Shown here piece by piece: positions 35,224 to 61,935 of a DNA stretch of 64,000 nt. Numbering within the stretch: position 1 is the stretch's first letter; each line of letters begins with the position of its first letter. Both the position numbers and the translations under genes were made by a program. Below the pieces are notes generated by a model. That model did not search any database, had not been told where the DNA came from, and saw only the letters and a list, made by a program, of their open reading frames with translations. The DNA is from a virus: positions 16,595-80,594 of the IMG/VR virus record IMGVR_UViG_3300047089_000113; one strand, written 5' to 3'.

Positions 35224-35418
35224 TGCGGGTGTGTGCGCAGTTTTCCTTACTTACTACCCCCTTAAATTCTCCGGTCCATAAAGGTAAGAGAAAAGATGCC
35301 CGCACCCCCGCATACACCCGCACACACCCGCACCGAACTTCTACTTACAACACCCGCACACCCGCATTCCTGTGTTTACACGCTTCAGGATTGCGGGTGT
35401 TGGTTTTGTACACCCGCA
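35224..35418. repeat. Probable replication origin: CACCCGCA iterons with an AT-richer tract
   Basis: About nine direct or inverted copies of (CA)CCCGCA around TTTTCCTTACTTACTA...ATAAAGGTAAGAGAAAA at the 3' end of the helicase gene. Confidence 0.65.
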
Positions 35419-38933: not shown

Positions 38934-38981
38934 GTTCTCTCCCTCATCGTGATCGGCGTACTCAGGCACCACTGTACCGGC

Positions 38982-39013
38982 GGAATCGCTAGGATGTCCT
39001 TGGTGTTTACACC
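38982..39013 (+). promoter_or_regulatory. GGAAT-N18-GTT promoter with palindromic operator at the divergence point
   Basis: GGAAT 38982, GTT 39005, GGTGTTTACACC 39002-39013. Confidence 0.75.
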
Positions 39014-39063
39014 AGTGACCGGCGCATCCCGCGACCGGGGATGACGTTAAAGGAGAGAGTCAA

Positions 39064-40011
39064 ATGGGAGAGCGCCCGAGAGGCCCGCTGCCCGGCTGGC
39101 AGCCGCAGCCCGGCTTCCAGGCCGCGCTGCTGGCCGACATCATGGACCGGCTGAACCAGCACGACCGCGAGGGAACGCTGCCGCGCTCCCCGCGCGGGCT
39201 GTTCTACGACCTGCGCCCGTCCGGCTACGGCCGGGGCATCACCTACACCAAGTACCCGGCGATGCACCGGGTGGGCACCCAGCAGCGCAAGGTCAACCCG
39301 ATGGACGCCTCCGTATCTCACGTGCAGGAAGTCCTGGCCCTGGCCCGGCGAGCCGGGCTCGTGCGCGAGAGCTGGATAGAGGACACCCGCGCCCCGCTCC
39401 CGGCGGTGCCGTCCTACGACACCGAGACCGCCGAGCAGGTGGCCGGGCAGCTAGCCGATATGGTCCGCAACCCGGCCCTGGAGTACAGCCCGCAGGAGGA
39501 CCAGGAGACCTACCTGGAGGTGCTGGTGGAGGCCGCCGGGCTGATCAGCCGCCTGGAGCGGATCGCCGCGCCGTACGGCGTGCCGGTCTACTCCGGTGGC
39601 GGGTACGGCGGCATCAAGGGCAAGCGGGCGGCAGGTGGCCGCGCCGCGCGCCGCGAGGTGCCGACCGTGGTGCTCCAGGTCACCGACTACGACGACCACG
39701 GGCTGAGGATCGCCCGCGCGTCAACGGAGGACAGCACCGCCTGGGCCGAGCAGTACTACGACGCGGAGCCGGGCTGGCTGACGTTCGAGCGGATCGCGCT
39801 GACCGAGGACCAGGCCGCCAGCGCCGACCTGCTCGACCAGTTCGGCAAGGCCGAGGCGGACGGGCTGCCGGTGCCGGTCATGGACCAGATCCTGCGCGAT
39901 GCGATCGAGGGCTACCAGGACCCGGCCCTGCGCGAGCAGACCATCGCCCGCGCCGCCGGGGAGCGCGAGCGCGTCCCGGATCTGGTCCGGGAGCTGCTGG
40001 CCCAGGACTAG
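39064..40011 (+). CDS. Toprim-domain protein (Topo VI-A/JetD-like)
   Basis: R.LFY winged-helix Tyr motif, EV.VE, DYDDHG, RIALT..Q, E.D.L; AAGGAG RBS. Confidence 0.7.
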   Translation: MGERPRGPLPGWQPQPGFQAALLADIMDRLNQHDREGTLPRSPRGLFYDLRPSGYGRGITYTKYPAMHRVGTQQRKVNPMDASVSHVQEVLALARRAGLVRESWIEDTRAPLPAVPSYDTETAEQVAGQLADMVRNPALEYSPQEDQETYLEVLVEAAGLISRLERIAAPYGVPVYSGGGYGGIKGKRAAGGRAARREVPTVVLQVTDYDDHGLRIARASTEDSTAWAEQYYDAEPGWLTFERIALTEDQAASADLLDQFGKAEADGLPVPVMDQILRDAIEGYQDPALREQTIARAAGERERVPDLVRELLAQD

Positions 40012-40024
40012 TGATAGCCTCCGG

Positions 40025-40056
40025 GGAATGCCTGGTGTACGCAGGGTGTTGACACC
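40025..40056 (+). promoter_or_regulatory. GGAAT-N18-GTT promoter with operator
   Basis: GGAAT 40025, GTT 40048, GGTGTTGACACC. Confidence 0.7.
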
Positions 40057-40158
40057 AACTGCGGCCACCAGGCCGCCAAGGTCACGATCAAGATCAAGAT
40101 GATCCTGGCCAGTCTCTATGCCCCGTCCTGGGGCTGACTAGCAAAGGAAGTACCACAA

Positions 40159-41079
40159 GTGGAAAACGAGGACTTCAAGGTCCCGTGCAAGGCCGCGTTC
40201 GAGTTCATCACGCCCGAGAAGGCGAAGCAGATGCTCGACACCGGCATCAACCGGCGCAACCGGAAGGTGACGGAGCCCGCCAAGAAGCGGCTCCAGGGCA
40301 TCATCGAGCGCGGCGAGTGGATGTTCGACTCCACCGACGCGATCGGCACGGCCAAGGACGGCTCTGTCGTCAACGGCCAGCACCGCCTCACCGCGATCTC
40401 CGAGGGCAGCAAGGGAGTCTGGGCACTGGTTGTCCGGGGCGTCCGGCCCGAGATCATCAAGGTGATCGACCAGCCGACGATGCGGACGATCCAGCAGGCG
40501 CTGGAAATCGACGGCCGGTTCCCCGAGCCGGGTCCGCTGGCATCTGCGCTGAAGGACACCCACAAGTACCTGATCCACGGGTTCAAGAAGACCCTGCCGA
40601 CCGAGTACAAGCCCACCATCCCGCAGCTCCTGGAGCTGCTGGCTGAGCACCCGCACCTGGTAGACAGCCTCGGCCTGGCCGGGAAGGTCTACCGCAACCC
40701 CTACAAGGCGCTCCCCAAGGGAGCCTGGACCGCCCTGCACTACGCCTTTAGCTGCGCCGACGCGGAGCTGGCTGACCAGTTCCTCACGGCCATCGCTACC
40801 GGCGAGGACATCAACGACGGCGATCCCGCCTACCTGCTCCGGGAGCGGTTCTTCATCACCGAGCCCAGCAAGGCCAACGACACGCGCAAGCGGACCCTGG
40901 AGGTTCACGAGGCCGTGTCCCTGGCCATCATGGCGTGGGAGGCAACCCGCGCTGGCGGGCTGACCGTCAAGGAGACCAAGGTGCTCCGCACCGGCTTCCC
41001 GCTGGCGGCTGCCCCGATGCCGGTCGTGACCGGCGTGCCGTGGCTGGCCCGCGACGACAACGGGAAGGCGGCTGCCTGA
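40159..41079 (+). CDS. ParB/Srx-like N-terminal domain protein
   Basis: ITP..A..L...NR...G.W...NGQHRL.AI. Confidence 0.7.
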   Translation: MENEDFKVPCKAAFEFITPEKAKQMLDTGINRRNRKVTEPAKKRLQGIIERGEWMFDSTDAIGTAKDGSVVNGQHRLTAISEGSKGVWALVVRGVRPEIIKVIDQPTMRTIQQALEIDGRFPEPGPLASALKDTHKYLIHGFKKTLPTEYKPTIPQLLELLAEHPHLVDSLGLAGKVYRNPYKALPKGAWTALHYAFSCADAELADQFLTAIATGEDINDGDPAYLLRERFFITEPSKANDTRKRTLEVHEAVSLAIMAWEATRAGGLTVKETKVLRTGFPLAAAPMPVVTGVPWLARDDNGKAAA

Positions 41080-41080
41080 G

Positions 41081-41998
41081 ATGAACACCCGCCACCTCGC
41101 GGTGGTGGACTCGGCGGGCCGGGGCGATTCAGCCCCGGCCCTGCCGGGCTCTGGCCGCGAATATGACAGGATCGTGGCCGCCGCGCTCGATGAAGACGAG
41201 AAGAAGGGCAGCTACTTCAAGTTCCGCACAGCCGAAGCCCTGGCGCTGGATATCCCGGAAATAGGCGGCGGCAACCGGCGGCCTGAGAAGGACATCCCCG
41301 CGAGGCTTGCCGAAGCTCGCCAGGCCATCATCGACGCTGGCGGGAAAGCACGGTCAGCGGGGACACTAAAGGACTACCGCCTGGCCGCTCTGTGGGTCAT
41401 AGATAGGGATCTCCCTACTTATGCTTTCCGGTGGGTAACCGGGGCGGCGATCAACACGCACGCCGAGGCTCGCAAGTATGGCATGTCCTATGAGGACTTT
41501 GCCACCTTGCCCCCGGAAGACCGGAAGGTGGACAGGATACGCGAGATGCACGGTGCCGCGACAACTCACGGCAGCCCGAGCGGCAGGAAGCCCGCCAAGG
41601 TGGCTAAGGCCGAGGTCAGCGCTCGCAAAGAGAAGCGCAAGGCTGAGCTAGCTGAAAGCGCGAAGTCCAGGGACGCCATCCGCGAGAACGCCTACAACAC
41701 GATGCGCAACGCCCCGCCCGGAGCGCAGAATAACCCGATGTTCTGGCGCGCGTCCAAGGTGGAAGCGCTGATCAACGAGCTGCGCTCGATCGAGCCCGAG
41801 GTTGCGGCCAGTAATCTCGTCCCGCCCGCGTTCCGCTTCTTCACCGCCGAGAACCGCGACTGGTGGGACCGGTTTGTCACGGCCTGCGAGAAGCGGCTGG
41901 CGGATGAGATGCCAGGTGAGAAGCCGCTGAAGCGGCACCCGGCACGGGCTCCGTGGGCCGAGTCGGGCCTGGACACCGGGCGGGAGTCACCGTCATGA
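41081..41998 (+). CDS. Hypothetical protein
   Basis: 305 aa, coupled; more A/T-ending codons than its neighbours. Confidence 0.55.
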   Translation: MNTRHLAVVDSAGRGDSAPALPGSGREYDRIVAAALDEDEKKGSYFKFRTAEALALDIPEIGGGNRRPEKDIPARLAEARQAIIDAGGKARSAGTLKDYRLAALWVIDRDLPTYAFRWVTGAAINTHAEARKYGMSYEDFATLPPEDRKVDRIREMHGAATTHGSPSGRKPAKVAKAEVSARKEKRKAELAESAKSRDAIRENAYNTMRNAPPGAQNNPMFWRASKVEALINELRSIEPEVAASNLVPPAFRFFTAENRDWWDRFVTACEKRLADEMPGEKPLKRHPARAPWAESGLDTGRESPS

Positions 41999-42267
41999 AC
42001 AGCGAGCTGGTCAAGCGGCTGCTGGACATCGGGGACACCATGATGGAGCCCGAGCAGCAGCGTGTCCTGCACGGCAGCATGATCATGGAGATGCTGGCCG
42101 AGGCGCAGCAGGCCCGCGATGACTACCTGGCCGACATCCAGATGCTGCGCGAGCGCGGCCACGATTTCGAGCCCGACCAGAAGCTGCTGACCGCCCTGTC
42201 CGATGTGATCACCGCACTTGCCGAGCACGCGACGGCCCTGTTCGAGGGCGGCGAGGACGGTGAGTAA
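41995..42267 (+). CDS. Hypothetical acidic helical protein
   Basis: ATGA overlap with the upstream stop. Confidence 0.5.
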   Translation: MNSELVKRLLDIGDTMMEPEQQRVLHGSMIMEMLAEAQQARDDYLADIQMLRERGHDFEPDQKLLTALSDVITALAEHATALFEGGEDGE

Positions 42268-42472
42268 GCGCCGGTTCCAGAACAAGGCGGCGAAGGAGCT
42301 GGCTGACCAGATCCGGGCGGCCGACCCGTCTGCGGTGATCGAGTTCAACCGGCTCGGACATCTCAAGGTCACCGGCCCGGCCGGGACCGCCGTGATCCCC
42401 GGCAAGCCGAAGTTCCCGGCCAAGTCGCGGGTGCGGCTGGCCCGTTACGCTGGCATCTACCTGGCCGCCTGA
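42260..42472 (+). CDS. Small basic HicA-like protein
   Basis: About 70 aa; helix, then GHLKV..P.G..V.P, then helix. Confidence 0.45.
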   Translation: MSKRRFQNKAAKELADQIRAADPSAVIEFNRLGHLKVTGPAGTAVIPGKPKFPAKSRVRLARYAGIYLAA

Positions 42473-42537
42473 GCACCGAGCGCCCGTCACTTTCAGGTCC
42501 CCCAGTGGCGGGCGTTCGGCATTCCCGCAGGCCAGCG

Positions 42538-42568
42538 GGAAGACCGGCGTCAGTTACCCTGTTTACAG
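42538..42568 (+). promoter_or_regulatory. GGAAG-N18-GTT promoter variant with TGTTTACA core
   Basis: Exact 18-nt spacing; lies after the hairpin at 42481-42514. Confidence 0.5.
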
Positions 42569-42597
42569 GAAGATGACGATGAGGAATAGGTGCTGAG

Positions 42598-43101
42598 ATG
42601 GCTGTTACCGTTGCCGGTCGCGTGATCGAGGGCCACCTGGCGTGCCCGCCGGTCAGCACCGAGCTGGACGAGGAAACCGGGCGCAAGCGCGAGCGCTTCG
42701 TGACCATGGAGCTGTACGCCCTGGATGACGGCGGCTGGCTGGCGCACCGTACCGGCTGGTCGGTGATCTACCACCGCCGCGATACCTTCTGCACCACGCG
42801 CGGGGGCCGCAAGAGCGGGGACCTGGCCAGCGTCGATGACCTGCCCGACGACGCGATGCCGTGCCCGCAGTGCCAGCCCCCCGCTCCCCGCAGGCTGCCC
42901 GATGGGCCGGGCGTGGTCCGGTTCGAGTTCCCCCGGCATAGCTGGGACCAGTGCCCGACGCCTGAGCTGATCAAGATGCGGCTGACCACGGTGCGGTCCC
43001 GCGACGGCGGGATCAGCGAGTTCATGAGCGAGCCGGTGGCCGAGCTGCTGCGCAACGCCGCCGCGATCTACCCTGAGTTTGCGCCGCTGCTCGCGGCGTG
43101 A
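42598..43101 (+). CDS. Hypothetical protein with Cys motif
   Basis: H...C...CPQC, 167 aa. Confidence 0.55.
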   Translation: MAVTVAGRVIEGHLACPPVSTELDEETGRKRERFVTMELYALDDGGWLAHRTGWSVIYHRRDTFCTTRGGRKSGDLASVDDLPDDAMPCPQCQPPAPRRLPDGPGVVRFEFPRHSWDQCPTPELIKMRLTTVRSRDGGISEFMSEPVAELLRNAAAIYPEFAPLLAA

Positions 43102-43180
43102 CGTAGGGTGTAAACACCTGGCTCGCGCTCTCCCCCCCAGGCGCGGGCCAGGTCTGATAACGATGAGGAAGGCCGCAGCC

Positions 43181-43759
43181 GTGAACACCGATATCGACAA
43201 GCTGGAGCCCGGCACGTTCGGCGTCAGCCACGGCGGCGGCACCGCCGGGGAGCTGATCCGGCACGCTACCGGCTCCTGGGCCGGGCACGCCTTCCTGTAC
43301 CTGGGCGGCGGGCTGATCGTGCAGGGCCAGCCCCCGCAGGCGGCCACCGCGCCCGCAGCCAGCCACGGTGACGCCATCTGGGCCTGGCGGATGTGGGACT
43401 ACCTGCGCGAGAACGGCTGGACCGCCGACCAGGCCGCCGCCGCCCAGGCCAAGGTGGTCGAGCGCGGCAGGCAGCTCATCGGGTGCAGCTACGATTTCGA
43501 GGCGTACGGCGCGTTCACCCTGATGGTGCTGAAGCTGCGCACCGCCGGGCAGCTCTCCCCGCTGTTCCGCCGGGACGCCTGGCGGGTGTGCTCGGCGCTG
43601 GTGGCCGATGCCGTGGAGTACGGCGGGGTGCCGCTGCACTTTGAGTCCGGCGACGGGCCGGGCCTGGCGCAGCAGGAAGACCTGAAGGTGATCATGCCGC
43701 CCAACCTGGTGGCCCCCGGCATGCTGCTGGGCCTGTCCCAGCGGCTCGGCTGGTCCTGA
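43181..43759 (+). CDS. Permuted papain-like NlpC/P60 (YiiX/YaeF-like) enzyme
   Basis: His before Cys: WAGHAFLYLG...G..YD...CSALVA; start may be 43163. Confidence 0.75.
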   Translation: MNTDIDKLEPGTFGVSHGGGTAGELIRHATGSWAGHAFLYLGGGLIVQGQPPQAATAPAASHGDAIWAWRMWDYLRENGWTADQAAAAQAKVVERGRQLIGCSYDFEAYGAFTLMVLKLRTAGQLSPLFRRDAWRVCSALVADAVEYGGVPLHFESGDGPGLAQQEDLKVIMPPNLVAPGMLLGLSQRLGWS

Positions 43760-43901
43760 TGGCCGACGATGATCCTCGGGCGCACTACGCCGTCAGGGTG
43801 ACCGATCTCCCGCCCACCGAGATCGTCTGCAAGTGCGGCGAGACGTTCACCGGAGACGACACGATCGGCCAGGTCAAGGCCCACATGGACGCGCTCAACT
43901 G

Positions 43902-45659
43902 ATGCCCGGAGCCCTGGACTCGGTGCGGCTTCACCTCGTTTCCAGCCTGGACGAGCTGGAAGCCTGCCGCCGCTGGGCTGGCGAGCGCCGCGACGTGCCG
44001 CTGTTCGCGGACACCGAGTCCGCCGGGCTCAATCCCCATCATGACCGGATGCGGATGGTGCAACTGGGGGACCTGAACCACGGCTGGGCGTTCCCGCGCG
44101 GCTGGTGGGGAGGCGCGATCGAGCTGCTGACCCGGTACGCCGGGGCCATCGGCTTCCACAACTCCCCGTACGACTGGCGGGTGCTGGCCGTCCACGAGCA
44201 GGTTGAGCCGCAGTGGCACAAGACCGAGGACACGCTGCTGCTCGGGCACATCGCGGACTCACTGCGGCTGGCCGGGCTGAAGCCGAGGGCCACCCAGGAA
44301 GTGGACCCTCGGGCGCTGCGCGGCGAGCAGGTACTGAGCGAGGGCATGAAGGCCCGGCACTGGACCTGGGATGACGTGCCGGATACCTGGGCTCCCTACT
44401 GGATGTACGCCGCCCTGGACCCGGTGCTGGCCGCGCACCTGTGGGCCGCGCCGTCCTTCACCCGCGCCCGGACCATCTACCGCGAGGCGTACGACCTGGA
44501 GCGCGCGACCGCGCGGATCTGCGCCCGGATGATGCTCACCGGGATGAGGCTCGACGTCCCCTACATCACCGAGCGGATCTCCGAGATCCAGGACTACACG
44601 CACCGCGCCGGGAGCTGGCTGAGCGGCACGTTCGGGATCAATAATCCGGGGTCAACGAAGCAGGTCACGGCGGCGATGGCCGAGTGGGGCATCCCGGTCT
44701 CGGTGTACACCGAGAAGGGCAACCCGAGCCTGAACAAAGAGGCGCTGGGCTATTACGCGCTGGCGTACCCGCAGCACAAGGAGCTGTTCGACGCCGTTCG
44801 CTGGTGCCGCAAGGGCAACTCGATGGTGAACAACTACCTGGGCAAGTTCCTGACCTTGCGCAATGACGACATCCTGCACTACAACATCCACTCCTGCCGC
44901 GCCCGCACGACGCGGATGAGCATTACCGACCCGGCCATGCAGACCTTTGACCGCGACGTCCCGGCTATCCGGGGCGGCTTCCAGCCGCGTGAGGGCTACG
45001 CGCTGATCACCATTGACGCCGATCAGATAGAGGCACGGCTTACTGCTCATTACGCCAATGACCCGCGCATGATCGCGGACTTCCGCTATGCCGATGAGCA
45101 CAAGCTGAAGTTCTTCATCGAGATGGCCAGCCGCATTTACGCCGAGCGGATATCCAAGCGCGACCCCCGGTACACCTGGACCAAGAACGCCACCTACGGC
45201 CAGATTTACGGTGCCGGGCTGGCGAAGGCGGCGGTAACCGCCGGGGTGCCGGTGGAGGTCATGAGGCCCGCTTACGAGGGCCTGAGCCAGATGTACCCGA
45301 ACGTCGCCCGGTACATGAACTACCTGATCCGCACCGGCAAGAGCGGTCGGCCGAAAGTGCAGACCATCGACGGCCGGTGGCTGTACACCAACCGGGGGCA
45401 TGAGTACGCGCTGCTCAACACGCAGATCCAGGCCAACGCCGCGATCGTGCTGAAGCGCGGCATCATCAACCTGGACGCGGGCGGCCTGGGCGAGTTCCTG
45501 CGGCTGCCGGTGCACGACGAGCTGTTGCTTGAGGCCCCGGTCGCCATGGCGGCCGACGTGCTGCGCGAGGCCGAGCGCATCCTGACCGACCGCGAGAGCT
45601 TCAGAGTTCCAATTACTTGGAGCGGCAGCATCCTCACCGAGAGATGGGTGAAAACCTGA
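43902..45659 (+). CDS. polA: Family A DNA polymerase with 3'-5' exonuclease
   Basis: Exo DTES, HN..YD, YAALD; motif A DADQIEAR, motif B KNATYGQIYG, motif C VHDE. Confidence 0.93.
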   Translation: MPGALDSVRLHLVSSLDELEACRRWAGERRDVPLFADTESAGLNPHHDRMRMVQLGDLNHGWAFPRGWWGGAIELLTRYAGAIGFHNSPYDWRVLAVHEQVEPQWHKTEDTLLLGHIADSLRLAGLKPRATQEVDPRALRGEQVLSEGMKARHWTWDDVPDTWAPYWMYAALDPVLAAHLWAAPSFTRARTIYREAYDLERATARICARMMLTGMRLDVPYITERISEIQDYTHRAGSWLSGTFGINNPGSTKQVTAAMAEWGIPVSVYTEKGNPSLNKEALGYYALAYPQHKELFDAVRWCRKGNSMVNNYLGKFLTLRNDDILHYNIHSCRARTTRMSITDPAMQTFDRDVPAIRGGFQPREGYALITIDADQIEARLTAHYANDPRMIADFRYADEHKLKFFIEMASRIYAERISKRDPRYTWTKNATYGQIYGAGLAKAAVTAGVPVEVMRPAYEGLSQMYPNVARYMNYLIRTGKSGRPKVQTIDGRWLYTNRGHEYALLNTQIQANAAIVLKRGIINLDAGGLGEFLRLPVHDELLLEAPVAMAADVLREAERILTDRESFRVPITWSGSILTERWVKT

Positions 45660-45904
45660 TGACTGACTACTACACCAAGCGCCCCGTCAAGGGAACCGGC
45701 ACTGGCGGCCAGGCAACCGTGACGCAGCCGAAGGTCCAGGAAGTTCTCAGGTGGATCAGGGCGCTACCGATGGGGGCAGGGCCGAGACGCGCCGACTACC
45801 CGTCTTCGCATCATGTGGCGGATCTTGCCCGCCAGGTTGCCGTGGCGGACGGGCTCATGGTGCATACGGGGGGCCGCTACGTCCGCACCAGCAAGCTGGC
45901 CTAG

Positions 45905-46216
45905 ATGATCGGCTACCTGCACATCGGCAAGGTCCGCACCGAGATCGAGAGCATCACCTTCAACGAGGACTGCATGGTGGTGCGGGCCACGCTCGGGCCG
46001 GAAGTCGCGGCCGAGCTGAGAGGCCACGTGAAGATCGAGGGCCTGGACGGCACGGTCTGCTGGCGCGGCACCAAATGGCACGACTACGGCGTCAAGACAG
46101 CCGGGGGCGCGTTCGGGCCGAGCACCTGGACGATCGTGCTCAACGCCGACCTGTTCGACCGGACCAGCGCCACGATCACGGCCAGGTACGAGAACGGGCC
46201 GCTGGAGATCCCGTGA
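45905..46216 (+). CDS. Hypothetical protein
   Basis: Coupled ORF after a small gene at 45660-45904. Confidence 0.45.
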   Translation: MIGYLHIGKVRTEIESITFNEDCMVVRATLGPEVAAELRGHVKIEGLDGTVCWRGTKWHDYGVKTAGGAFGPSTWTIVLNADLFDRTSATITARYENGPLEIP

Positions 46217-46218
46217 CG

Positions 46219-46795
46219 TCAGACGGCGGGCGGGGCGTCGGGAGGCGCGGCTGGCGGGGTCACCAGCCCGCTGACGCCCTGCGTAGCCGTGTCGAGCGAT
46301 GTCTGCACGCTCTGGGCTCGGGCCGCGAGCGCGTCGAGCTGGGTGGTGTCCACGGGGGTACCGGCGGCTACCTGGGTAGCGAGGGCCTGGGTATCGGTGA
46401 CGAGCTGGGCTGCGTCCGCCGCGACTGCATCCATCATCGAGCTGATGGCTGCGACGTCGGCCTGGATCTGCTGTTCTGACATGAGGATCTGGTTTACCTT
46501 CCCGTGCATACGGTCAACGGAGGTCTGGAGGTTGGACAGTGCCGTGGTCACCTGGACGTACCAGGCTTGCGACGGGGCACGAGACGGGAACACGGCGGCG
46601 AGCCGCCTACGCAGGCGGTGCTGGCGGGACACTCTCGGCAGCCGGTGCAGTCTCGGCAACCTCATCGGCGCTGGCGCTGGCCTCGGCCACGACAGGCGTC
46701 TCCTGCGCGGCAGTGGCTTCCTCATCCCTGGCGCGCTGCTCCGCGATCTCGGCAGCTACGGCCTCGCGGTCTTGCGGCATGGTCATGATGACCTC
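46219..46795 (-). CDS. Two small reverse-strand genes (an acidic 46607-46795 and a coiled-coil gene ending at 46219)
   Basis: GGGAGG RBS before 46795; A/Q/D-rich helical products; antisense to the surrounding arm. Confidence 0.45.
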
Positions 46796-46837
46796 CCTTC
46801 GCCCTGAGCATTGCACCTACCCCTGAAGGAGGCAAAT

Positions 46838-47284
46838 ATGCCAGCCCCGCCGCCGGTCACGCTCTGGATAGACCCCGGTGGTCAGACCGGCTTCGCCTGC
46901 CTGGAGTTCAGCACGTTCTGGGCCGAGGAACACCCGTGGGACCGTGCCTGCGACAAGCTCACCGGCATGGCCAGCTACTACCGCACCGCGCTCTACATCG
47001 GCTGGGAGACGTTCACCATCCTGCCGAGCACGCACAAGCTGAGCCCGCAGCCCGAGGCGTACGAGTTCCCCGGCGTGATCAAGTACGTCGCCCGGACGTG
47101 GGGGTGCCGCCTGCTGCCGCCAGCCCGGCCGTCTGAGCGGAATGTGGCCACGCCCGAGATGCTGAAGCGGGTCGGCTGGTGGGTGCCCGGCAAGGATGAC
47201 GCCCAGTCCGCCAGCCAGCATCTGCTGGCCTTCTGCCTCCGCGAGAATTGCGTGCCGCACGCCATTGCGCCGATGATACGGTAG
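46838..47284 (+). CDS. RuvC-like Holliday junction resolvase
   Basis: IDPGGQTG, central E, DDAQSA..H; AAGGAGG RBS. Confidence 0.75.
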   Translation: MPAPPPVTLWIDPGGQTGFACLEFSTFWAEEHPWDRACDKLTGMASYYRTALYIGWETFTILPSTHKLSPQPEAYEFPGVIKYVARTWGCRLLPPARPSERNVATPEMLKRVGWWVPGKDDAQSASQHLLAFCLRENCVPHAIAPMIR

Positions 47285-47328
47285 GCTGTTTACACCGTCC
47301 GACCAACGATCACGATAAGGGACAGAAG

Positions 47329-47757
47329 ATGGCATCAAAGTCATCGCTTGCCGAGCGCCCGCGCATGCCCAAAGGCACGCCCGCTCAGCGCAAGCGCAAG
47401 GCGACCAAGATCAGCGAGATCCCGGTAACCCAGCGGGCCTGCCGAGCCGGACGCCACCCGTGGCCGTCCGACGAGCTGGAGACCGGCAAGGTGCTGCCGA
47501 AGGGCCTATCCGCCTTCTCCACCGAGACGTCCGGTGTCTACCAGCTCATCGACCAGTGCCAGCGGTGCGGCAAGGTCCGCTGGAAGCTGACGCTACCGGG
47601 CCACATCTACGACCCCGGCGCGAGCTGGCGCTACATCGACCCGCGCAACCAGCCCGGTTACGAGGACTGGGTGACGCTGGATGAATCCCTGGAAGTCACC
47701 AAGGGGGACCTGAAGGCGTACGCCATCGCGGAGCACGCGGAGGCGCTGTTCTCATGA
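47329..47757 (+). CDS. Hypothetical basic Zn-binding protein
   Basis: C....H.W...C.RCG. Confidence 0.55.
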   Translation: MASKSSLAERPRMPKGTPAQRKRKATKISEIPVTQRACRAGRHPWPSDELETGKVLPKGLSAFSTETSGVYQLIDQCQRCGKVRWKLTLPGHIYDPGASWRYIDPRNQPGYEDWVTLDESLEVTKGDLKAYAIAEHAEALFS

Positions 47758-47887
47758 GCACGCAGCAGATCATGCTGGTCATCCCGAAGGATCTGGCCGA
47801 TCGCATCCTGAAAGACCTGTCCATCCTGGACAGCCTGGCCCCGAAGTCCTTCGCCATCCTCGGTGACTACATCCGGGCTGAGATCTC

Positions 47888-51567: not shown

Positions 51568-51621
51568 TGTCAGACCCCTGTGCTCTGATAGGGTGAGTAC
51601 ACCCGCAAGGGAAAGGTCACG

Positions 51622-52413: not shown

Positions 52414-52419
52414 AGAACG

Positions 52420-53724: not shown

Positions 53725-53726
53725 AC

Positions 53727-53872
53727 GTGACCGGCTGCACCCCGGCCTGGCGGTAGAAAACCGTTCTCGTGCTACCGGCGCTTGCACCACGGGGAGCGCA
53801 CACACACGGTATGCGGTAGTCACGCGACAGAGGGCAGCCGGTCACCCCTGGCTAGCCGAGACCCGGCTGGCC
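53727..53872 (+). ncRNA. Candidate structured RNA or leader
   Basis: A 12-bp closing stem (53727-53738 with 53834-53845) encloses several internal hairpins, followed by another hairpin. Confidence 0.4.
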
Positions 53873-53897
53873 GACGACACCACACAGAAGGAAGACG

Positions 53898-54686
53898 ATG
53901 CAGATAACCCGAACCGAGACATCGACGGGCACCGAGGACCGGACGCGGCGCGAGGAAATCGTGCCGCTGAACACCGGCACCCGCGAGGTCGAGCCCGAGA
54001 TGTACCTGGACTGCTCCGAGTCCGAGGGCTGGCCCTGGAGCAGCCAGCCCAGCCTCAACACCTGGGGCATCCAGATCGAGGCCGTGCGCGGCTTCATCGT
54101 CCCGTTCGAGGCGCTGGACAGCCAGGCCGCCGCCGAGCAGGCCGGTGGCGACGATGAGAAGGGCGGCGTCTACGCCTACCCCTTCAGCAACGCCTTCCTG
54201 CCGATCGGGAAGGGCGACGATGACGGCGACCTGAACAGCTCCAACTTCACCGAGAAGCTGGCCGCGTTCATGGCCAAGTACTTCCGGGACGGCCTGCCGC
54301 GCGGCGGCACCGAGGCGATGACCGCGATCCGCGCCGGGGATGAGCACTTCATGGGCGAGTTCCGCTCCGACCCGCGTGACGAGCGGCCGGTGCGCGCCCG
54401 CGTGATGTGGACGGACGGCATGCTCAACGATGCCAGCCAGTTCCAGAGGTACCTGGCCCAGGCCACCCTGACGCCCGAGGGCTACGGCGCTCACGGCGAC
54501 TGGGACGAGGTGTGGGCGGTCGCTATCCTGGGCGAGCCCGGCGGCGGCGGCAAGGCTGCCTACGAGCAGTACGTGGCCCTGGCCAAGGACCACCCGTGGA
54601 TACACGCCTACTACTTTGAGGGCGTGACCAACCCGGCCGAGGTCGCGGAGGACATGGCCGTCGCGGTGGTCCCCACCGCCGCGTAG
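53898..54686 (+). CDS. Stand-alone vWA-domain protein
   Basis: MIDAS-like DCSES, GGT, TDG; acidic. Confidence 0.7.
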   Translation: MQITRTETSTGTEDRTRREEIVPLNTGTREVEPEMYLDCSESEGWPWSSQPSLNTWGIQIEAVRGFIVPFEALDSQAAAEQAGGDDEKGGVYAYPFSNAFLPIGKGDDDGDLNSSNFTEKLAAFMAKYFRDGLPRGGTEAMTAIRAGDEHFMGEFRSDPRDERPVRARVMWTDGMLNDASQFQRYLAQATLTPEGYGAHGDWDEVWAVAILGEPGGGGKAAYEQYVALAKDHPWIHAYYFEGVTNPAEVAEDMAVAVVPTAA

Positions 54687-54693
54687 CCGCAGA

Positions 54694-54846
54694 TCGTGCC
54701 CGCGCCAGCCGGGCTCTCAGCAGTGCACGGGACTGCGGGAGTTTACGGACGATCGGCTGGCGCGGGCACACCCGCAGCCCCGCAGGCTCTCTGAATGCGC
54801 GCGGGTGCGAGAGCACCCCGACCTGGCACAACCTGCGGGGCTGCGG
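54694..54846. ncRNA. Two long stem-loops (candidate RNA or terminators)
   Basis: GTGCCCGCGCCAGCCG pairs with CGGCTGGCGCGGGCAC (16 bp); CCGCAGCCCCGCAGG pairs with CCTGCGGGGCTGCGG (15 bp). Confidence 0.4.
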
Positions 54847-54849
54847 CCT

Positions 54850-54881
54850 GGAATAGATCACGGGCCTGGGGTGTTTACACC
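54850..54881 (+). promoter_or_regulatory. GGAAT-N18-GTT promoter with operator
   Basis: GGAAT 54850, GTT 54873, GGTGTTTACACC. Confidence 0.75.
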
Positions 54882-54903
54882 ATCGAAGGGCAAAGAGCCC
54901 GGA

Positions 54904-55956
54904 ATGTCAGACCCGAAGGACACGATACAGATCATGAGTCAGGAAACGAGCGAGTGGCTGAACAACTACACGTTGATCGGCTTCACCGACAAGCGCGGCA
55001 AAGCGTGGCACTACCGCGAGAGCGCGCAGGGCGCTGAGCCCAACCACTACCCCCAGGAGATCCCGGTGCCGGACATCAAGCGCCGCCTGTTCGACTGGGA
55101 GCCCGCCATCGGCACGTCGCAGTCCACCTGGACCGACGCTGACGGCAAGACCCGCACCAGCACGTGGCAGGACCGGATCACCCTGATCCACCCGCACACC
55201 GGCTTCCGCCTCGGTGAGTTCACCGATGGCTTCACGCCGCACAGCTTCAGCCAGTGGCTGGTGGACCTGAGCCAGGACGTCATGGACTCCGACGTCGGGG
55301 CCAGCTCGGCAGGACTGCTGAAGGGCGGCAAGCTCGCCTGGGTGCAGTTCGAGCTGCCCGAGACGCTGGACACGCCCGAGGGCATCAGCTACCGGCCGTT
55401 CTTCCTGGCCGCAGACAGCCTCGACGGCTCGCTGAGCACCACGCACCAGCGTGGCGTGCAGCTCGTGGTGTGCGACAACACGCTGGCGGCAGGGCTGTCC
55501 GAGGGCAACGCCCTGAAGGTCAAGACCCGGCACAGCAAGTACTCCAACGCCAACATCGGTGACGTCCGCGCCAAGCTGGACATCATCTACCAGGCGGGCG
55601 ACGACTTCGCCGCCGAGGTGGCCAAGCTCTCCGCGACACAGGTCAGCGACCCGCAGTGGGACGCCTTCCTGAAGGCCCACCTGGGCGACCGCCCGGAGGA
55701 CAAGGGCCGTGGGCAGACCAACTACGACAACCACCGTGACGGTCTCCAGAACCTCTGGGACAACGACATGCGGGTTGCCCCGTGGTCCAACACCGCGATG
55801 GGGGTCGTGCAGGCGGTCAACACCTACGCGCACCACATCCAGACCGTGAAGGGCGCAGAGCGCGCCGAGCGGAACATGACCAAGATGGTGACCGGCGAGT
55901 TCGAGAAGCTGGACGCCGCCACCCTGGACCAGCTCAACCTGGTGCTGGCGGCCTGA
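54904..55956 (+). CDS. DUF932-family protein
   Basis: AWH, FDW, SAG.L.GGK..W, S.DGS, VVCDNTL, RH, T..G..QAV..Y. Confidence 0.85.
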   Translation: MSDPKDTIQIMSQETSEWLNNYTLIGFTDKRGKAWHYRESAQGAEPNHYPQEIPVPDIKRRLFDWEPAIGTSQSTWTDADGKTRTSTWQDRITLIHPHTGFRLGEFTDGFTPHSFSQWLVDLSQDVMDSDVGASSAGLLKGGKLAWVQFELPETLDTPEGISYRPFFLAADSLDGSLSTTHQRGVQLVVCDNTLAAGLSEGNALKVKTRHSKYSNANIGDVRAKLDIIYQAGDDFAAEVAKLSATQVSDPQWDAFLKAHLGDRPEDKGRGQTNYDNHRDGLQNLWDNDMRVAPWSNTAMGVVQAVNTYAHHIQTVKGAERAERNMTKMVTGEFEKLDAATLDQLNLVLAA

Positions 55957-55996
55957 CCCGGTTGCGACCGGTAGGCTGATTACACCAGACTGAGGG

Positions 55997-56027
55997 GGCC
56001 AGGCAGCGCGAGAGCGCCGCCTGGCCT
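55997..56027 (+). terminator. Hairpin after DUF932
   Basis: GGCCAGGC...GCCTGGCC stem. Confidence 0.4.
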
Positions 56028-56048
56028 CTGGTCGTTAGGGAGGCAACC

Positions 56049-56354
56049 ATGCAGCAGGCCGAGGTCAGGCACGATGAGGCGTGGCGCTCGGCTGTCTCGT
56101 TTTCCAAGCTAGCGGAGCTGCTGAGTGCTCATTACGGCGAGACGATCACCCGTCAGCGGGTGTACGAATGGTGGAAACGGGAGACGAAGAACGCAGCCGG
56201 GCAGCCGTTCCCGCGCGAGGCGGGGATCATCCCGCACGCGCCGGTCAACCGCCCGAGCCGCAATTTCGACTACCGGGCCGTGCTGACCTGGACCACGCAC
56301 GGGGTGCCAGCCCGCTACGGCAACGGCTGGCGGCAGCTAGGGAGCCAGGAATAG
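56049..56354 (+). CDS. Helix-turn-helix DNA-binding protein (excisionase/AlpA-like)
   Basis: FSKLAELL....TITRQRVYEWWK...FP...F....V..W; GGGAGG RBS. Confidence 0.65.
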   Translation: MQQAEVRHDEAWRSAVSFSKLAELLSAHYGETITRQRVYEWWKRETKNAAGQPFPREAGIIPHAPVNRPSRNFDYRAVLTWTTHGVPARYGNGWRQLGSQE

Positions 56355-56379
56355 ATCAGCCACCTGGAGTGTTTACACC
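56348..56379 (+). promoter_or_regulatory. GGAAT-N18-GTT promoter with operator
   Basis: GGAAT 56348, GTT 56371. Confidence 0.75.
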
Positions 56380-56429
56380 AGAGTAAGGCCCCACCAGGGG
56401 GCCGAGCAAACAGAAGGACAACGATACAG

Positions 56430-59400
56430 ATGACGATCACCGGATACCCGTACGACGATTACGACGGGACCGACGAAGCGTTCGAGCGGCTGCTGGCCAG
56501 CGATCCCGCGTACGAGGCCGACGCCAGGAACTACCTGGCTACCGGCAAGTGCCGAGGGCACCAGTTCCCGAGCGAGATATCCGCTCGCGCCGACGCCGAG
56601 GCCGACTTCACCGCAGCATCCGAGCGGACAGTAGCACCCGGACGGTGCACCGGCTGTGAGGCCGACGCCGCCGAGCTGCTGCCCTGGACCTCCAGGGAGC
56701 GGCTGTGCTGGCGCTGCGTAGACCTCCAGCTCGACCTGCTGGCCGGGGCGATCAGCGAGGGCAACGCCCTGGCGATCAACACCAGCCCGAAGGTGGTGTG
56801 GGCATGAGGGCCGACGATGCGGTCAGGTTCGTGAACGGCCTGGCCTTCAAGCCCGGCTGGCGGCCGGTAGCCGAGGTCTACACGACCGGCTACATCCAGA
56901 TCAGCTTCCTGATCGAGACCGTGGACACCAGCTACCCGGACGGCGACGGCATCTGCCGCAAGCCCATCCGCATCTTCGGCCAGGACAAGCTGGTCAACGT
57001 GACCAGCCTGGACGATGAGGGCCTGCTGGCCGAGGTGCTGAAGTGCGCGGCCGAGAACGACGAGCACGAAAACCGCGAGTTCCTGAAGGTCCGCCAGCCC
57101 GATGGGTCCTGGCAGGCCCCGCTGCACCCCCACACCGACGCGGGCAACCGCGCGTGGAGGCGGCACCAGCGGCCAGCAACCGGCGCAGCCGGGCTGCTCC
57201 AGTACCTGGAGTCGTAATGAGCCAGCCTGTCTTTGACGGGCCGGACAACTTGGAGGTGCAGGCCATCGGACTCGATGGCCGCACCGCCGAGTGGCGGGTC
57301 CGGCGGCACGGGATCTGGATGCCCTACACCGCGCCCTACTACCAAGGCCCGGATGCGCGCAACCCGCGCACCATTGCCGAGCTGGCCACCCTGGTCGATC
57401 TCGGCACCCTGAAGGAGAGAGAGCATGCTGACGCCGACCGAGCGCCGCACCCTGACCCGAACCGTGGTCAAGTCGATGCGGGCGCACCAGGTCTGGATGA
57501 CGCCCGAGCTGCGTGACCGCCCGGACGCCCTGCGCGAGCGCGATGAGGCGCTGCACCAGGCCCGTAAGGCACTGGTCGCGCTGATCAATGACCACACCGA
57601 TGAAGTCAAGGCCCGGCTGCGAGCCCGGCCGCAAGAAGGAGACCGAGATGACCACCGCGCAGCAAGCGCCTGAGCAACTGACCTGGAAGCGCCAGCCGAT
57701 GGGCGAGTACGTCGCCCGGCACGGCTTCTGGGTGTACACCGTGTTCCGCAACACCCAGGCCGCGAAAGGCCGTCAGTGGGTCCTGGAGGCATACCCCGAG
57801 GGCAACATGGACGACTCCCATGCGCGCACCGGCTTTGACACCGCCCGGACGGCCAAGACTGCGGCACTGGGCACCCACTGCTTTATCTGCGGCCGGACCA
57901 GGCCGTTCGGCACGCTGAAGCGCCAGCCCGGCCGCAGCCAGCTCTCCTACCCGACCTGGGTGTGCCGTGACGAGAAGCCGTGCCGCGCCGAGCGCGACCG
58001 GCTGACCGCCGAGCGCGAGCGGAAACTTGCCCCCGGCAACTACGCCAGCGCGCTCCAGGAGGTCGTGAGCCTCAAGGCCCGCGTCCGCAAGATGGAGACC
58101 GACGCGCTGACGCTGCGGACCAGGGCGATCGAGGTCGGCGTTCCCGAGGACGAGATCCGCCAGATCGAGTCGGCGCACTCGACCTCGGCCAAGGTGTGCA
58201 TAGCCTGCGAGCAGCCCCAGAGCGAGCCGCACCTGAGCTGGTGCCCGGTAGTCACCGGCAAGCTCAGCACGCTTCCCACAGACTGGAAATAAAACCCTGG
58301 CCTGCGGTGTTTACACCATTGAAAGGAACGCTTGAGTCACCGGGGCCGGACAGCCCGGCCCCGTATCAAGCCCGACGATGACTGAGAATAACGTCCCGGT
58401 TGAGGACATCATGACCTACGAGCAGGGCGACCTGCCCGAGGACGAGACGGTCGCCATGTTCCAGAAGCTGGTCAACAGCGGGATGGCCTGGCGGCTCCAG
58501 GGTCACTACGGCCGGACAGCCGCAGCCCTGATAGAGGCCGGGCTAGTCCAGCCAGCCGAGTAAGAGAGAAGGACAACGATGCAGATCGAGATCACCAAGG
58601 AAGACCTGATCCACGCCCGCGATGAGGGCACGATCATCGTCTTCACCGGCACCGACGATGAGACCGGTGACCGGGTGACGTTCGGAGCGGACCACCGCCC
58701 CGCCACCGCGCTGTACGAGGCGGCGCTGGAGCAGTCCGAGCCGGTCGCGGCCGAGGTCGAGCCCTACCAGGTGCTCAGCCGTATCCCGCTGCGGCGGGGC
58801 CGGATCGCCCGGACCAGGGGCGGCAACCCGGTCTCGGAGACCGCAGCGGCCTACCTGCCGCGCAACTACCAGGTGACCGGTGAGGATGACGAGTTCGTCT
58901 ACTTCGCGGGCCACGACAACGCCGGGTGGACGCTGGATGACTACGTGATCCCGCGCCTGGCCAGCGGCCTGATCTGGGCCGAGGAAGTGACGGCATGACG
59001 ATGAGCGAGAAGCCCGGCCAGTGGGGGTCGGGCCAGGTGTCCGGCCCCGCACCGAGTGGAGGACCACCATGCCCCCCGCCCCCCGGCACCTGACCGCCTC
59101 CGAGAACGGCATCATCACCAAGGCCCTGGCTGAGTACGCCCTGAAGATGGCACGCCTGGCCGCCAGCCGCAAGAACGCCGGGTCAGACAAGATCGAGCAC
59201 CGCGCCCGGCTCCGTGAGCTGTCCCGCAAGGCGGGCAACCTGGCCCGAGAGTTCGAGAAGGAGATATGACGATGGACTGCTCGCAGTGCCACGCCGACGT
59301 GCCCCGGCTCAGTGACCGGGAGGGCCACAAGATGGACTGCACCCGGCACGCCGTCACCGTGCACCTGAGCACCGGCCAGGACGGCAACATATTTGCGATC

Positions 59401-60229: not shown

Positions 60230-61256
60230 GCAGTACCAGGTGGCGCGGCGGGAAGACCTGGATGCCTTCGGCCAGGTCTGCCCGCGCACGCTGAGCGCCC
60301 GCGACGTGCTGGACCTGCACGCCGACCTCCAGCGCGAGCTGGCCAGGCCGGAAATCTGGTACCGGGAGGGCCTGCTGGACTACGCGGTCAGGGACGTGGG
60401 CGACAAGCCCCAGTGGATGGCCAGTCACCTGCACCCGTCCACCTCCATGAAGAACCTGGAGCCGTGGCTGGCCTCCCTCGGCACCGACCTGTTCGGCGCG
60501 ACCACTTACCAGGTCACCGCCGAGATGATCGACCTGGCTGAGGCGCTGGCTGAGGCCAACCCGAGTATCGGCGCGATCCAGAAGGAAGACCTGCCGTCCG
60601 ACTACGGGTTCATGTGGCTGGACAAGCCGATCCCGCGTCCCTCACTTGAGGACGGGGACCGCGATCCGCTGCTGATGCACGCGGTGAGCTGGGCTCTGGT
60701 ACCCGCGATGCCCGTACGGATCGGTGACTCTGAGTCCGGCAGGCTCCACGACCGCCACGGCCTGATCGGGTTTACCGGCGTCATGCCAGCCATCCGGGTC
60801 CGCGAGTGGGGCTACAACAACAGCCCCGACGTCCGGCCCCGGCCGCTGCACCTGATGGGCCAGGCCACCATCCCGATCACGGGCGGGGTTTACACGAACC
60901 TGAAGGAGCACTGGCACGTCCACATGCTGTGGATATTGATGGGGATGGAGATCACCGCCATCCGCACCGAGCTGCCCGGTCGGCAGGGCGCGAAGCGCGC
61001 CGCCAGCCTCAAGCACAAGCTGATCCGCGTGGTCACGCTGCGCCGTCCCGAGCATAAGGACAGCGGCAAGTCCAGCGCCACGCCCCGGCACATCGACTGG
61101 AGCTGCACCTGGCTGGTACGCGGCCACTACCGCAAGGCCCCGCACGGCGGGACGTTCGCGGACGGCCGGGACGAGACCTGGGTCCGGCCGCACATCAAGG
61201 GGCCGGACGGCCTGCCGCTGCGAGCCCGCGACATCCTCTACCGGCTGGCACGCTAG
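60219..61256 (+). CDS. Conserved phage hypothetical protein
   Basis: 345 aa with a C-terminal W.VRGH.R...WV.PH.KGP motif. Confidence 0.65.
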   Translation: MSNEQYQVARREDLDAFGQVCPRTLSARDVLDLHADLQRELARPEIWYREGLLDYAVRDVGDKPQWMASHLHPSTSMKNLEPWLASLGTDLFGATTYQVTAEMIDLAEALAEANPSIGAIQKEDLPSDYGFMWLDKPIPRPSLEDGDRDPLLMHAVSWALVPAMPVRIGDSESGRLHDRHGLIGFTGVMPAIRVREWGYNNSPDVRPRPLHLMGQATIPITGGVYTNLKEHWHVHMLWILMGMEITAIRTELPGRQGAKRAASLKHKLIRVVTLRRPEHKDSGKSSATPRHIDWSCTWLVRGHYRKAPHGGTFADGRDETWVRPHIKGPDGLPLRARDILYRLAR

Positions 61257-61287
61257 GAATAAACGCCTGACCTGCGGTGTTTACACT
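61256..61287 (+). promoter_or_regulatory. GGAAT-N18-GTT promoter with operator; probable leaderless transcript
   Basis: GGAAT 61256, GTT 61279; GTG start at 61291 with no RBS. Confidence 0.75.
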
Positions 61288-61290
61288 AGT

Positions 61291-61842
61291 GTGAGCAACA
61301 ACGACAAGTACCTGATCCCCCTGGCGGGAGCCGCCCTGGCGATAGCGCTGGCTGGCTGCTCGTCTGCCAGGCCGAGCCCGGCCCCCGCGCCGACCGTCAC
61401 CGTGACGGCACCCGCGAGCCCGCGCCCGTCGCAGAGCCCGGCCCCGCCGGTTCAGCAGCCCGCACCGGTTACTACTCCTACTCAGCAGCCTGCACCGGCT
61501 AGTGATCCGGTGAGCATCCTGAAGGGGATGGGAGCGGTCCCGCTGACCGGCAACACCCGCGATGACTACGGCGACCGGATGGCCAGCGGGGTCTTCCTCG
61601 GCGCGTCCGGCTGGTCCGGCAAGATCGTCCAGCAGACCGTGAACGTCTACACCGGCAAGGACACCGCCGCCTACGCCGGGCTCACCGAGCGCCTGAATCC
61701 GGGCGACCAGGGAGCCGAGACCGGTGTCATCGAGATCCCGGCGAGCCGGGCAGTGATCATCACCTGGGCGACGGCCAGCAAGCCCGCCTGGGTGATCACG
61801 CCGCAGGCCATCGCCCAGCGAGTGCACGGCCAGCTCGCATGA
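61291..61842 (+). CDS. Lipoprotein
   Basis: Lipobox LAGC after a hydrophobic signal, then a Pro-rich linker. Confidence 0.75.
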   Translation: MSNNDKYLIPLAGAALAIALAGCSSARPSPAPAPTVTVTAPASPRPSQSPAPPVQQPAPVTTPTQQPAPASDPVSILKGMGAVPLTGNTRDDYGDRMASGVFLGASGWSGKIVQQTVNVYTGKDTAAYAGLTERLNPGDQGAETGVIEIPASRAVIITWATASKPAWVITPQAIAQRVHGQLA

Positions 61843-61852
61843 AACTTGGCGG

Positions 61853-61884
61853 GGAATAACCCCGTCACGTGTGGTGTTTACACC
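61853..61884 (+). promoter_or_regulatory. GGAAT-N18-GTT promoter with operator
   Basis: GGAAT 61853, GTT 61876; palindrome extended to GTGGTGTTTACACCAC. Confidence 0.75.
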
Positions 61885-61935
61885 ACGTAGGGCTCATCCC
61901 GAGCCCGACCACGATAGAAGATGAGGAAAACCGAT

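Follow-up and report, generated by a model that had tools for sequence, protein, structure and literature searches.

Phages are known to transcribe their genes with the housekeeping sigma factor of the host, with a sigma factor of their own or with their own RNA polymerase. In actinobacteria, the promoters of the SigH/SigR regulons are read by extracytoplasmic function (ECF) sigma factors of the ECF12 type, which are controlled by the zinc anti-sigma factors RshA and RsrA. The SigH consensus of Mycobacterium tuberculosis is GGAAYR-N17-GTT with tightly restricted spacing (PMC4803200), and that of Corynebacterium glutamicum is GGAAT-N18-19-GTT; in the latter species GGAAGA-N17-GTT has also been proven to act as a SigH promoter, and promoters used by SigH alone are marked by T at -31, SigE needing C (PMC10012870). 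Here we analysed a window of 64,000 nucleotides, bases 16595-80594 of the 80,594-bp IMG/VR virus record IMGVR_UViG_3300047089_000113 (genome G000), and describe ten sites that resemble this consensus and are very probably promoters, together with a palindrome that overlaps most of them.

The sites share with SigH/SigR regulon promoters the GGAAYR element, the 17-nt spacer, GTT, T at -31 and the tolerance of GGAAGA, and the RNA start predicted for them fits GTT at -12 to -10. Unlike those regulons, they lie on a phage genome in ten copies, and the genes behind them are not thiol- or heat-stress genes but replication genes, accessory genes and probably late ones. The sites also carry additional CCTG and TACACCA blocks and the overlapping palindrome, and their dependence on SigH/SigR is putative. 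Phage-encoded sigma factors such as T4 gp55 and phiEco32 gp36 (as described in a preprint on D29 gp53), and the sigma mimic D29 gp53, likewise use near-identical phage promoters that depart from the housekeeping consensus; in contrast, no sigma or gp53-family gene was found in G000, and its promoters match a host sigma consensus. The T4 middle promoters, which combine a MotA box with a -10 element and depend on sigma appropriation, resemble the sites in having a conserved upstream box in place of a -35 element, but the -10 region of G000 is without the housekeeping A and its spacing favours an ECF-type reading. Repressor sites repeated across actinophage genomes are known from the conserved inverted repeats of phiC31 and the stoperators of L5. 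G000 similarly has a short sequence repeated at many promoter and intergenic sites, but no repressor or integrase was detected in it, and its palindrome, unlike stoperators, is symmetric and overlaps two promoter classes.

In the full-text literature searched, no description was found of SigH/SigR-type promoter arrays in phages or of phages that rely systematically on an ECF stress sigma factor of the host. The promoter type itself is known; what is new is its systematic use on phage genomes, here with a putative shared operator. GGAAT-N18-GTT also occurs in mycobacteriophage Bxz1 (cluster C1), 18 times forward and twice in reverse, compared to 0 in the control, and within the stretch examined these sites are intergenic, between annotated genes. 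This array is apparently undescribed in the literature searched. As in G000, there are many co-oriented copies at gene boundaries, and searches for an ECF sigma factor in Bxz1 gave no match. Bxz1 differs in being an unrelated phage with a cultured host, in having an extended consensus of its own (GGAATGA..CCATACC..CGTT) and in lacking the GTGT-TT-ACAC palindrome.

Ten probable ECF-type promoters

Genes of G000 run leftward from ~38950 to the start of the window and rightward from 39064 to 62661. The window contains seven matches to GGAAT-N18-GTT against 0.42 expected (standard deviation 0.71), and none of 100 shuffles gave seven. Six of them, on the + strand at 38982, 40025, 54850, 56348, 61256 and 61853, lie exactly where the first-pass annotation, which proposed eight stress-sigma promoters, had placed them. 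The seventh exact match (32886..32861, - strand) had been missed, as had a further leftward site (25380..25355, - strand), which reads GGAAT-N18-GCT in G000 and in the sister phage G001 and ends in GTT in a second sister phage, G004. The two variants that completed the original list are backed by these relatives. The whole extended motif is present at the GAAAT site (58286) and its G001 orthologue is GGAAT, while the GGAAG site (42538) has the counterparts GGAAG-N18-GTT in G001 and GGAAT-N18-GTT in G004, both before the orthologous gene. Placement at gene boundaries was borne out at all ten sites, each being intergenic or over the upstream stop codon and aimed into the next gene (Table 1). The first-pass annotation tied the sites to the rightward arm and to early or accessory genes, but two leftward sites exist and the sites are not confined to accessory genes. 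The DNA polymerase gene belongs to the block behind 42538, and the 25380 site heads a leftward operon (start 25300) running toward the structural genes. The core replication block, from 47329 onward, has a housekeeping-type -10 and not an ECF-type promoter. On sequence grounds, there is a strong case that all ten sites are promoters.

Table 1. Promoter sites, palindrome copies and associated features in the window
Position	Strand	Feature	Context
38982..39007	+	ECF-type promoter GGAATC-N17-GTT	Before first rightward gene 39064-40011; palindrome 39003-39012; 5' hairpin 39025-39043
40025..40050	+	ECF-type promoter GGAATG-N17-GTT	Before two-gene cassette 40159-41998 (not in G001); palindrome GTGTTGACAC 40046-40055; hairpin 40061-40076
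42538..42563	+	ECF-type variant GGAAGA-N17-GTT	Before 42598-43101, heads DNA polymerase block; palindrome partial only (CTGTTTACAG)
54850..54875	+	ECF-type promoter GGAATA-N17-GTT	Before DUF932 gene; palindrome 54871-54880; short hairpin 54888-54900
56348..56373	+	ECF-type promoter	Upstream TAG stop within GGAATAG; palindrome 56369-56378; hairpin 56387-56403
58286..58311	+	ECF-type variant GAAATA-N17-GTT	Upstream TAA stop within -35 (GAAATAA); palindrome 58307-58316; hairpin 58341-58363; GGAATA in G001
61256..61293	+	ECF-type promoter	Leaderless GTG 61291 of lipoprotein gene 61291-61842; palindrome 61277-61286
61853..61878	+	ECF-type promoter	Before secreted-protein gene 61921-62661; palindrome with 7-bp arms 61874-61883; hairpin 61890-61906
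32861..32886	-	ECF-type promoter GGAATG-N17-GTT	-10 region also TATGTT; hairpin 32832-32850; downstream gene 32561-32812
25340..25380	-	ECF-type promoter GGAATG-N17-GCT	Palindrome 25340-25349, 5 nt further downstream, inverted; hairpin 25323-25339; gene start 25300
47282..47295	+	Housekeeping-type -10 TAGGCT abutting GTTTACAC, no GGAAT	-10 holds upstream stop codon; heads replication block from 47329
38971..39000	-	Candidate housekeeping-type promoter AGGACA-N18-TACAGT	For first leftward gene (start 38934); missed by strict scan
43108..43117		Palindrome GTGTAAACAC	Between two rightward genes, no promoter elements upstream; one mismatch in G001
35372..35381		Palindrome in loop of 15-bp inverted repeat	Within ACACCCGCA repeat cluster 35220-35400
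21298..21307		Palindrome GTGTTGACAC	Beside GC hairpin between two leftward genes; kept in G001

The proposed likeness to the stress-sigma consensus was upheld, as the geometry of the sites is that of the published SigH/SigR consensus (PMC4803200, PMC10012870). The spacer measures 17 nt at each of the ten sites, and among the G001 and G004 orthologues the one deviation is N19 at G004 68424. Seven of the eight GGAAT sites (the seven exact matches and 25380 with its GCT) have the GGAAYR hexamer, as GGAATG at 40025, 32886 and 25380 and as GGAATA elsewhere; the exception is GGAATC at 38982, where the R position is unmet. The variants read GAAATA and GGAAGA. The -10 trimer is GTT at every site other than 25380 (9/10), and position -31 is T at nine sites and G at one, which fits SigH over SigE. 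In five unrelated cultured actinophages used as a control, a looser GGAAY pattern gave 0-5 matches, no more than the reversed pattern.

Conservation was measured, ungapped, at eight orthologous sites of G000 and G001. Identity was 47% in the 30 nt upstream, rose to 97% in GGAAT, was 72% and 85% in spacer positions 1-12 and 13-18, reached 100% in the -10 trimer and 86% in the 7 nt after it, and fell to 45% in the following 37 nt. G001 has eight sites and G004 at least four; in G004 the spacers are mostly different, with GGAAT and GTT unmoved. The 18 strongest sites of the three genomes have in common GGAATa-N10-cctg-N-gGTGTTTACACCA.

In leaderless genes the RNA must begin at the start codon. 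The GTG at 61291, which had been called plausibly leaderless, is 9 nt past GTT and has no Shine-Dalgarno sequence, and this start codon is secure because a signal peptide and a LAGC lipobox are encoded behind it. A second leaderless start was found in G001, where an unrelated 56-codon open reading frame (third-position G+C 0.91) has its ATG exactly 9 nt past GTT. The two starts therefore put GTT at -12 to -10 and GGAAT at -35 to -31, the SigH promoter numbering, and RNA would start at the tenth nucleotide after GTT. At these leaderless sites a hexamer at -12 to -7 would read GTTTAC, which does not fit a housekeeping -10. A strict scan of 38000-57999 returned no consensus sigma-70 promoter.

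The four 5' hairpins noted in the first-pass annotation, behind the 38982, 56348, 58286 and 61853 sites, are present. At 16 of 23 sites, compared to 21% of random positions, a perfect GC stem with 5 bp or more starts no more than 26 nt from where RNA is predicted to begin, although the 23 sites are partly orthologous and not independent, so that the p-value overstates the difference. Orthologous stems vary in sequence but still pair; the stem at 56348, for instance, shows compensatory changes between the genomes (GGCCCC/GGGGCC in G000, GGGCCTC/GAGGCCC in G001 and GGGCTC/GAGCCC in G004). The hairpins are located in 5' untranslated regions and lack a U tract. The simplest reading is that they would act as protective 5' stem-loops.

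A palindrome at two classes of promoter

A palindrome of 10-14 bp, (G)GTGT-TT-ACAC(C), absent from the first-pass annotation, lies over the -10/+1 region of most sites. The dyad GTGT-NN-ACAC is present in 11 copies against 1.1 expected; all are intergenic and the dyad is kept in G001 and G004. It covers -10/+1 at eight sites and lies just downstream at a ninth, and its arms extend to 6-7 bp at 38982 and 61853. The palindrome explains much of the extended similarity of the sites. Core and palindrome are separable. The N18 spacing is constant where the palindrome is displaced, as at 25380, where in three genomes it is inverted and lies 5-8 nt downstream of G(T/C)T with GGAAT-N18-G(T/C)T unchanged, and also where it is missing, as at G004 80300, which has GGAAT-N18-GTT without a palindrome.

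The palindrome also abuts a housekeeping-type -10 at 47282, where the hexamer TAnnnT is kept in three genomes (TAGGCT in G000, TAGCCT in G001 and TAAGGT in G004), and it abuts TAnnnT without GGAAT at further sites of G001 and G004. The two types of upstream element are complementary, because the GGAAT sites carry TGnGGT, without the essential A, in place of TAnnnT. TTTACA or TTGACA within the palindrome was considered as a housekeeping -35 and rejected, no -10 being found 16-19 nt downstream. Its placement at two promoter classes, in both orientations and with or without the ECF core argues that the palindrome is a separate operator and not an RNA-level signal, and we regard an operator as the probable reading of the sequence. 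Most likely, such an operator would be read by a dimeric regulator controlling both promoter classes together. In the divergent region, the candidate leftward promoter faces and overlaps the rightward promoter at 38982 and has the palindrome 2 nt upstream of its -35; this promoter is not clearly kept in G001. Tentatively, the palindrome there could allow a switch between rightward and leftward promoters.

Further arrangements of the palindrome were observed. The first rightward promoter of G001 (L136:10813-10850, G001 50813-50850) has two overlapping copies, one of them, GCGTAAACAC, inverted and within the spacer, the other on the -10. Next to the 21298 copy, between an Rpf-like gene and the next gene, there is a tandem pair GATCACGAA-ACGATCACGAA (21298-21340, + strand) that is kept in G001. 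The cluster at 35220-35400 consists of direct and inverted ACACCCGCA repeats between leftward genes for 169-aa and 493-aa proteins, near the primase-polymerase gene. One copy of the palindrome, GTGTTTACAC, sits in the loop of its 15-bp inverted repeat, and the ACACCCGCA repeat has ACACC in common with the operator half-site. This cluster is a candidate replication origin or regulatory hub.

Candidate readers and alternative explanations

The first-pass annotation had seen no sigma factor gene in the window, and the search of the remaining genome was also blank. In six-frame searches of the whole 80,594-bp record, Sigma70_r2 (E <=0.001), r4 and r4_2 (E <=1) and TIGR02937 (E <=10) gave zero matches while the controls responded. 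The T7-type polymerase and the D29 gp53 family had no match either, though these blanks are weak, the controls having been silent everywhere. No zf-HC2 anti-sigma domain and none of the HTH_3, HTH_17 and WhiB regulator families was found in the same frames. The hunt for regulators and sigma factors also included Pfam and PHROG scans of ~70 proteins. A helix-turn-helix (HTH) protein heads the right arm of G001 and G004 and has no G000 homologue; its weak sigma region-4 match in the 330-aa G001 protein was rejected as a generic HTH (ArsR-type, E 5e-6). A sequence search of five candidate proteins against solved structures returned nothing, and the ESM Atlas was uninformative on a 142-aa protein. 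The 169-aa protein beside the repeat cluster (34526-35035, - strand) was modelled at pLDDT 83, and its N-terminal domain is YozE/UPF0346-like (Z 9.0, root-mean-square deviation 2.5 A over 73 residues). It was rejected as a sigma factor, the Foldseek rows for ECF sigma factors (E 2-3) being noise.

A host SigH/SigR orthologue is the most economical reader of the sites, because the phage is without a recognisable sigma or RNA polymerase gene. The ten sites would then function as ECF12-type promoters, the actinobacterial type read by SigH in Mycobacterium and Corynebacterium and by SigR in Streptomyces. Each would combine a GGAAYR-type -35 and a GTT -10 across a 17-nt spacer, with RNA made from the tenth nucleotide after GTT. 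Downstream there would be either a leaderless start codon right away or a Shine-Dalgarno sequence preceded by a short GC stem-loop. Host RNA polymerase with the host SigH/SigR orthologue most likely transcribes from them, and a dimeric regulator on the palindrome would govern the ECF-type and housekeeping-type promoters together. Taken jointly, reading by a host SigH/SigR-type sigma factor and a palindrome that is an operator form an explanation that we favour by a narrow measure of confidence.

Several observations weigh against this explanation. Conservation exceeds what SigH needs, both in CCTG at ~-19 and in TACACCA after GTT, so that the 45-bp unit as a whole could be read by some other factor, in place of SigH or in addition to it. 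SigH/SigR is kept bound by its anti-sigma factor as long as cells are unstressed; a phage depending on it would have to meet with stress or have a means of releasing it, and no such mechanism was found. No palindrome-binding protein was identified in G000. The free energy of the hairpins is ordinary, no stabler than the GC-rich genome background, so that their position and frequency alone stand out. All 24 runs that contain the G000 sequence are soil or rhizosphere DNA, and no RNA run is listed among them. Finally, most phage proteins have no detectable family, and a sigma mimic invisible to sigma profiles remains a serious rival. D29 gp53, such a mimic in mycobacteriophage D29, was found by interaction proteomics, and its own Pfam family matches it where sigma-factor families do not (D29 gp53 preprint).

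An undetected phage specificity factor, be it a divergent sigma factor, a sigma mimic or a sigma-remodelling protein, could steer the host polymerase, and the likeness to SigH/SigR would then reflect shared recognition chemistry or mimicry. The ~45 conserved bp, more than an ECF sigma factor needs, the missing family assignments and the cryptic sigma mimics of mycobacteriophages all speak for such a factor, which we nevertheless think unlikely given the blank sigma-domain, TIGR02937 and gp53-family searches, the generic nature of the one region-4 match in a sister phage, without G000 homologue, and the structure comparisons, which gave nothing for the five candidates and a YozE-like rather than sigma-like fold for the one protein that was modelled. 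We also considered housekeeping-sigma promoters with a weak extended -10 (TG-n-GGTGTT) and an activator on the GGAATA box near -30, as in T4 middle promoters. TG does stand one base ahead of the hexamer in most sites, and a true TAnnnT occurs in or near the -10 region at 32886 and at two G004 sites, but the essential A at hexamer position 2 is missing in most sites. Moreover, the distance from GGAAT to the hexamer is 15 nt at 25380 and 12 nt elsewhere, with GGAAT-N18-G(T/C)T constant, and the leaderless starts set the RNA start too far from the hexamer. No activator candidate was found, and this arrangement appears very improbable.

The other two alternatives concern what the repeats are. If the palindrome were part of the promoter, as discriminator and initial transcribed region, it could have been kept simply as the copies are recent duplicates; its fixed orientation to transcription in eight sites (central TT or TG, never AA) and the lack of a binding protein would agree with this. 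It is, however, also found at 47282 beside another -10 type without GGAAT in three genomes, is displaced and inverted at 25380, stands at 43108 without promoter elements and is missing from the core at G004 80300, and dyad arms of 4-7 bp are not expected from polymerase contacts. We judge that account improbable. The repeats might instead be no promoters at all, acting as RNA processing or stability signals or as recombination boundaries of exchangeable cassettes. Cassettes bounded by the sites do differ between G000 and G001, and the upstream stop codons within the motif would permit transcription from upstream. Set against this, two blocks at a rigid 17-nt spacing around a variable spacer are a sigma-recognition signature, a palindrome in both orientations would be intolerable for an RNA signal, and the leaderless lipoprotein gene requires an RNA start at its GTG. 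The strict sigma-70 scan of 38000-57999 leaves the -10-type site at 47282 as the one other promoter candidate of the arm, and a non-promoter role seems extremely improbable.

The first-pass annotation had further suggested host redox stress as a trigger of development, which is not supported. Six-frame searches of the whole record found neither a tyrosine nor a serine integrase. The phage may be virulent, and there is possibly no lysogeny decision to trigger because no integrase was detected. A more natural form of the idea is that lytic gene expression is coupled to host stress, or that the phage provokes the stress. In its widest form, the host SigH/SigR explanation would describe an apparently virulent lineage of soil actinophages in which most of the rightward arm and two leftward operons depend on host SigH/SigR and are gated, together with housekeeping-type promoters, by one palindromic operator. 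This two-sigma, one-operator circuit, coupled to the host thiol/heat-stress response or provoking it, is a possibility that we put forward tentatively.

If this is true, phage expression in actinobacteria would be paced by redox or heat stress of the host, or by SigH/SigR being freed from its anti-sigma factor as infection proceeds, with a bearing on soil phage-host dynamics and on the use of phages against mycobacteria. The Bxz1 array makes the idea directly testable in M. smegmatis, and the promoter-operator-hairpin module could become a stress-responsive expression part for actinobacteria.

Gene content and sister phages

The window has a G+C content of 66-71% along its length. Actinobacterial traits of G000 include an Lsr2-like gene, 69% G+C and distant homologues in actinophages. 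A megablast of 8 kb against phage records gave no match, meaning no close cultured relative, and the best protein identity to actinophages in protein searches was 45%. The rightward arm encodes a family A DNA polymerase, an Lsr2-like protein, an SNF2 helicase, a PD-(D/E)XK nuclease, an AAA_24 ATPase and a DUF932 protein, and is rich in small genes without a family. The leftward arm encodes a primase-polymerase, a GH25 lysin, terminase, portal, a Mu F-like protein and structural proteins.

G001 (81,691 bp) has a DNA polymerase 86% identical to that of G000, and its gene order is colinear with G000 but circularly permuted; its 127-bp terminal repeat looks like an assembly overlap. Tblastx segments of G004 (83,783 bp) have ~40-90% amino-acid identity. 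G002 is a fragment of the same phage as G000, and G003 is a fragment close to G001. When viral contigs were scanned with a pattern of 14 fixed bases, most matches were due to chance, and a tighter pattern led to the relatives G003 and G004.

The sister phages exchange cassettes bounded by promoters. The two-gene cassette of G000 (window 40025-42000), whose first gene has a ParB-like GQHR motif recognised by eye only, is not in G001. Behind the first rightward promoter of G001 (L136:10813-12681) lie genes for a 251-aa protein and the 330-aa HTH protein, both missing from G000. The gene behind the 61256 promoter also differs between G000 and G001.

Individual proteins of the right arm were also of note. 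A 154-aa protein (47888-48352, + strand) encoded right after the housekeeping-type promoter has a weak match to the Lsr2 dimerisation domain (E 3e-4, below the Pfam cut-off) and is possibly a nucleoid-associated protein that the phage encodes. Within the arm, conservation is highest for the gene of a 262-aa protein (53898-54686, + strand) with a DxSxS...T...D pattern that resembles a vWA/MIDAS domain in a consensus read by eye. It has >200 metagenomic homologues at 54-88% identity, and the homologues that a scan of genome contigs found in two uncultured Actinomycetes metagenome-assembled genomes lie outside a related-phage context, with the promoter motif at neither locus. The rightward arm ends in two genes, 61291-61842 and 61921-62661, each behind an ECF-type promoter of its own. 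Their products, the leaderless lipoprotein with its LAGC lipobox and a secreted protein that has a signal peptide, could have a role at the cell surface, such as superinfection exclusion.

The window contains 22 copies of an octamer, CGATGAGG, compared to 3.5 expected, for example at 25312-25319(-), 32820-32827(-), 38942-38949(-), 42577-42584(+) and 43161-43168(+). It is mostly on the coding strand and close before the start, in the order ACGATGAGGA/G, 5-9 nt and start codon. By its sequence and position it reads as an extended Shine-Dalgarno-like motif, and occasionally the ATG within it may serve as the start codon. The octamer recalls the start-associated sequences of cluster K mycobacteriophages.

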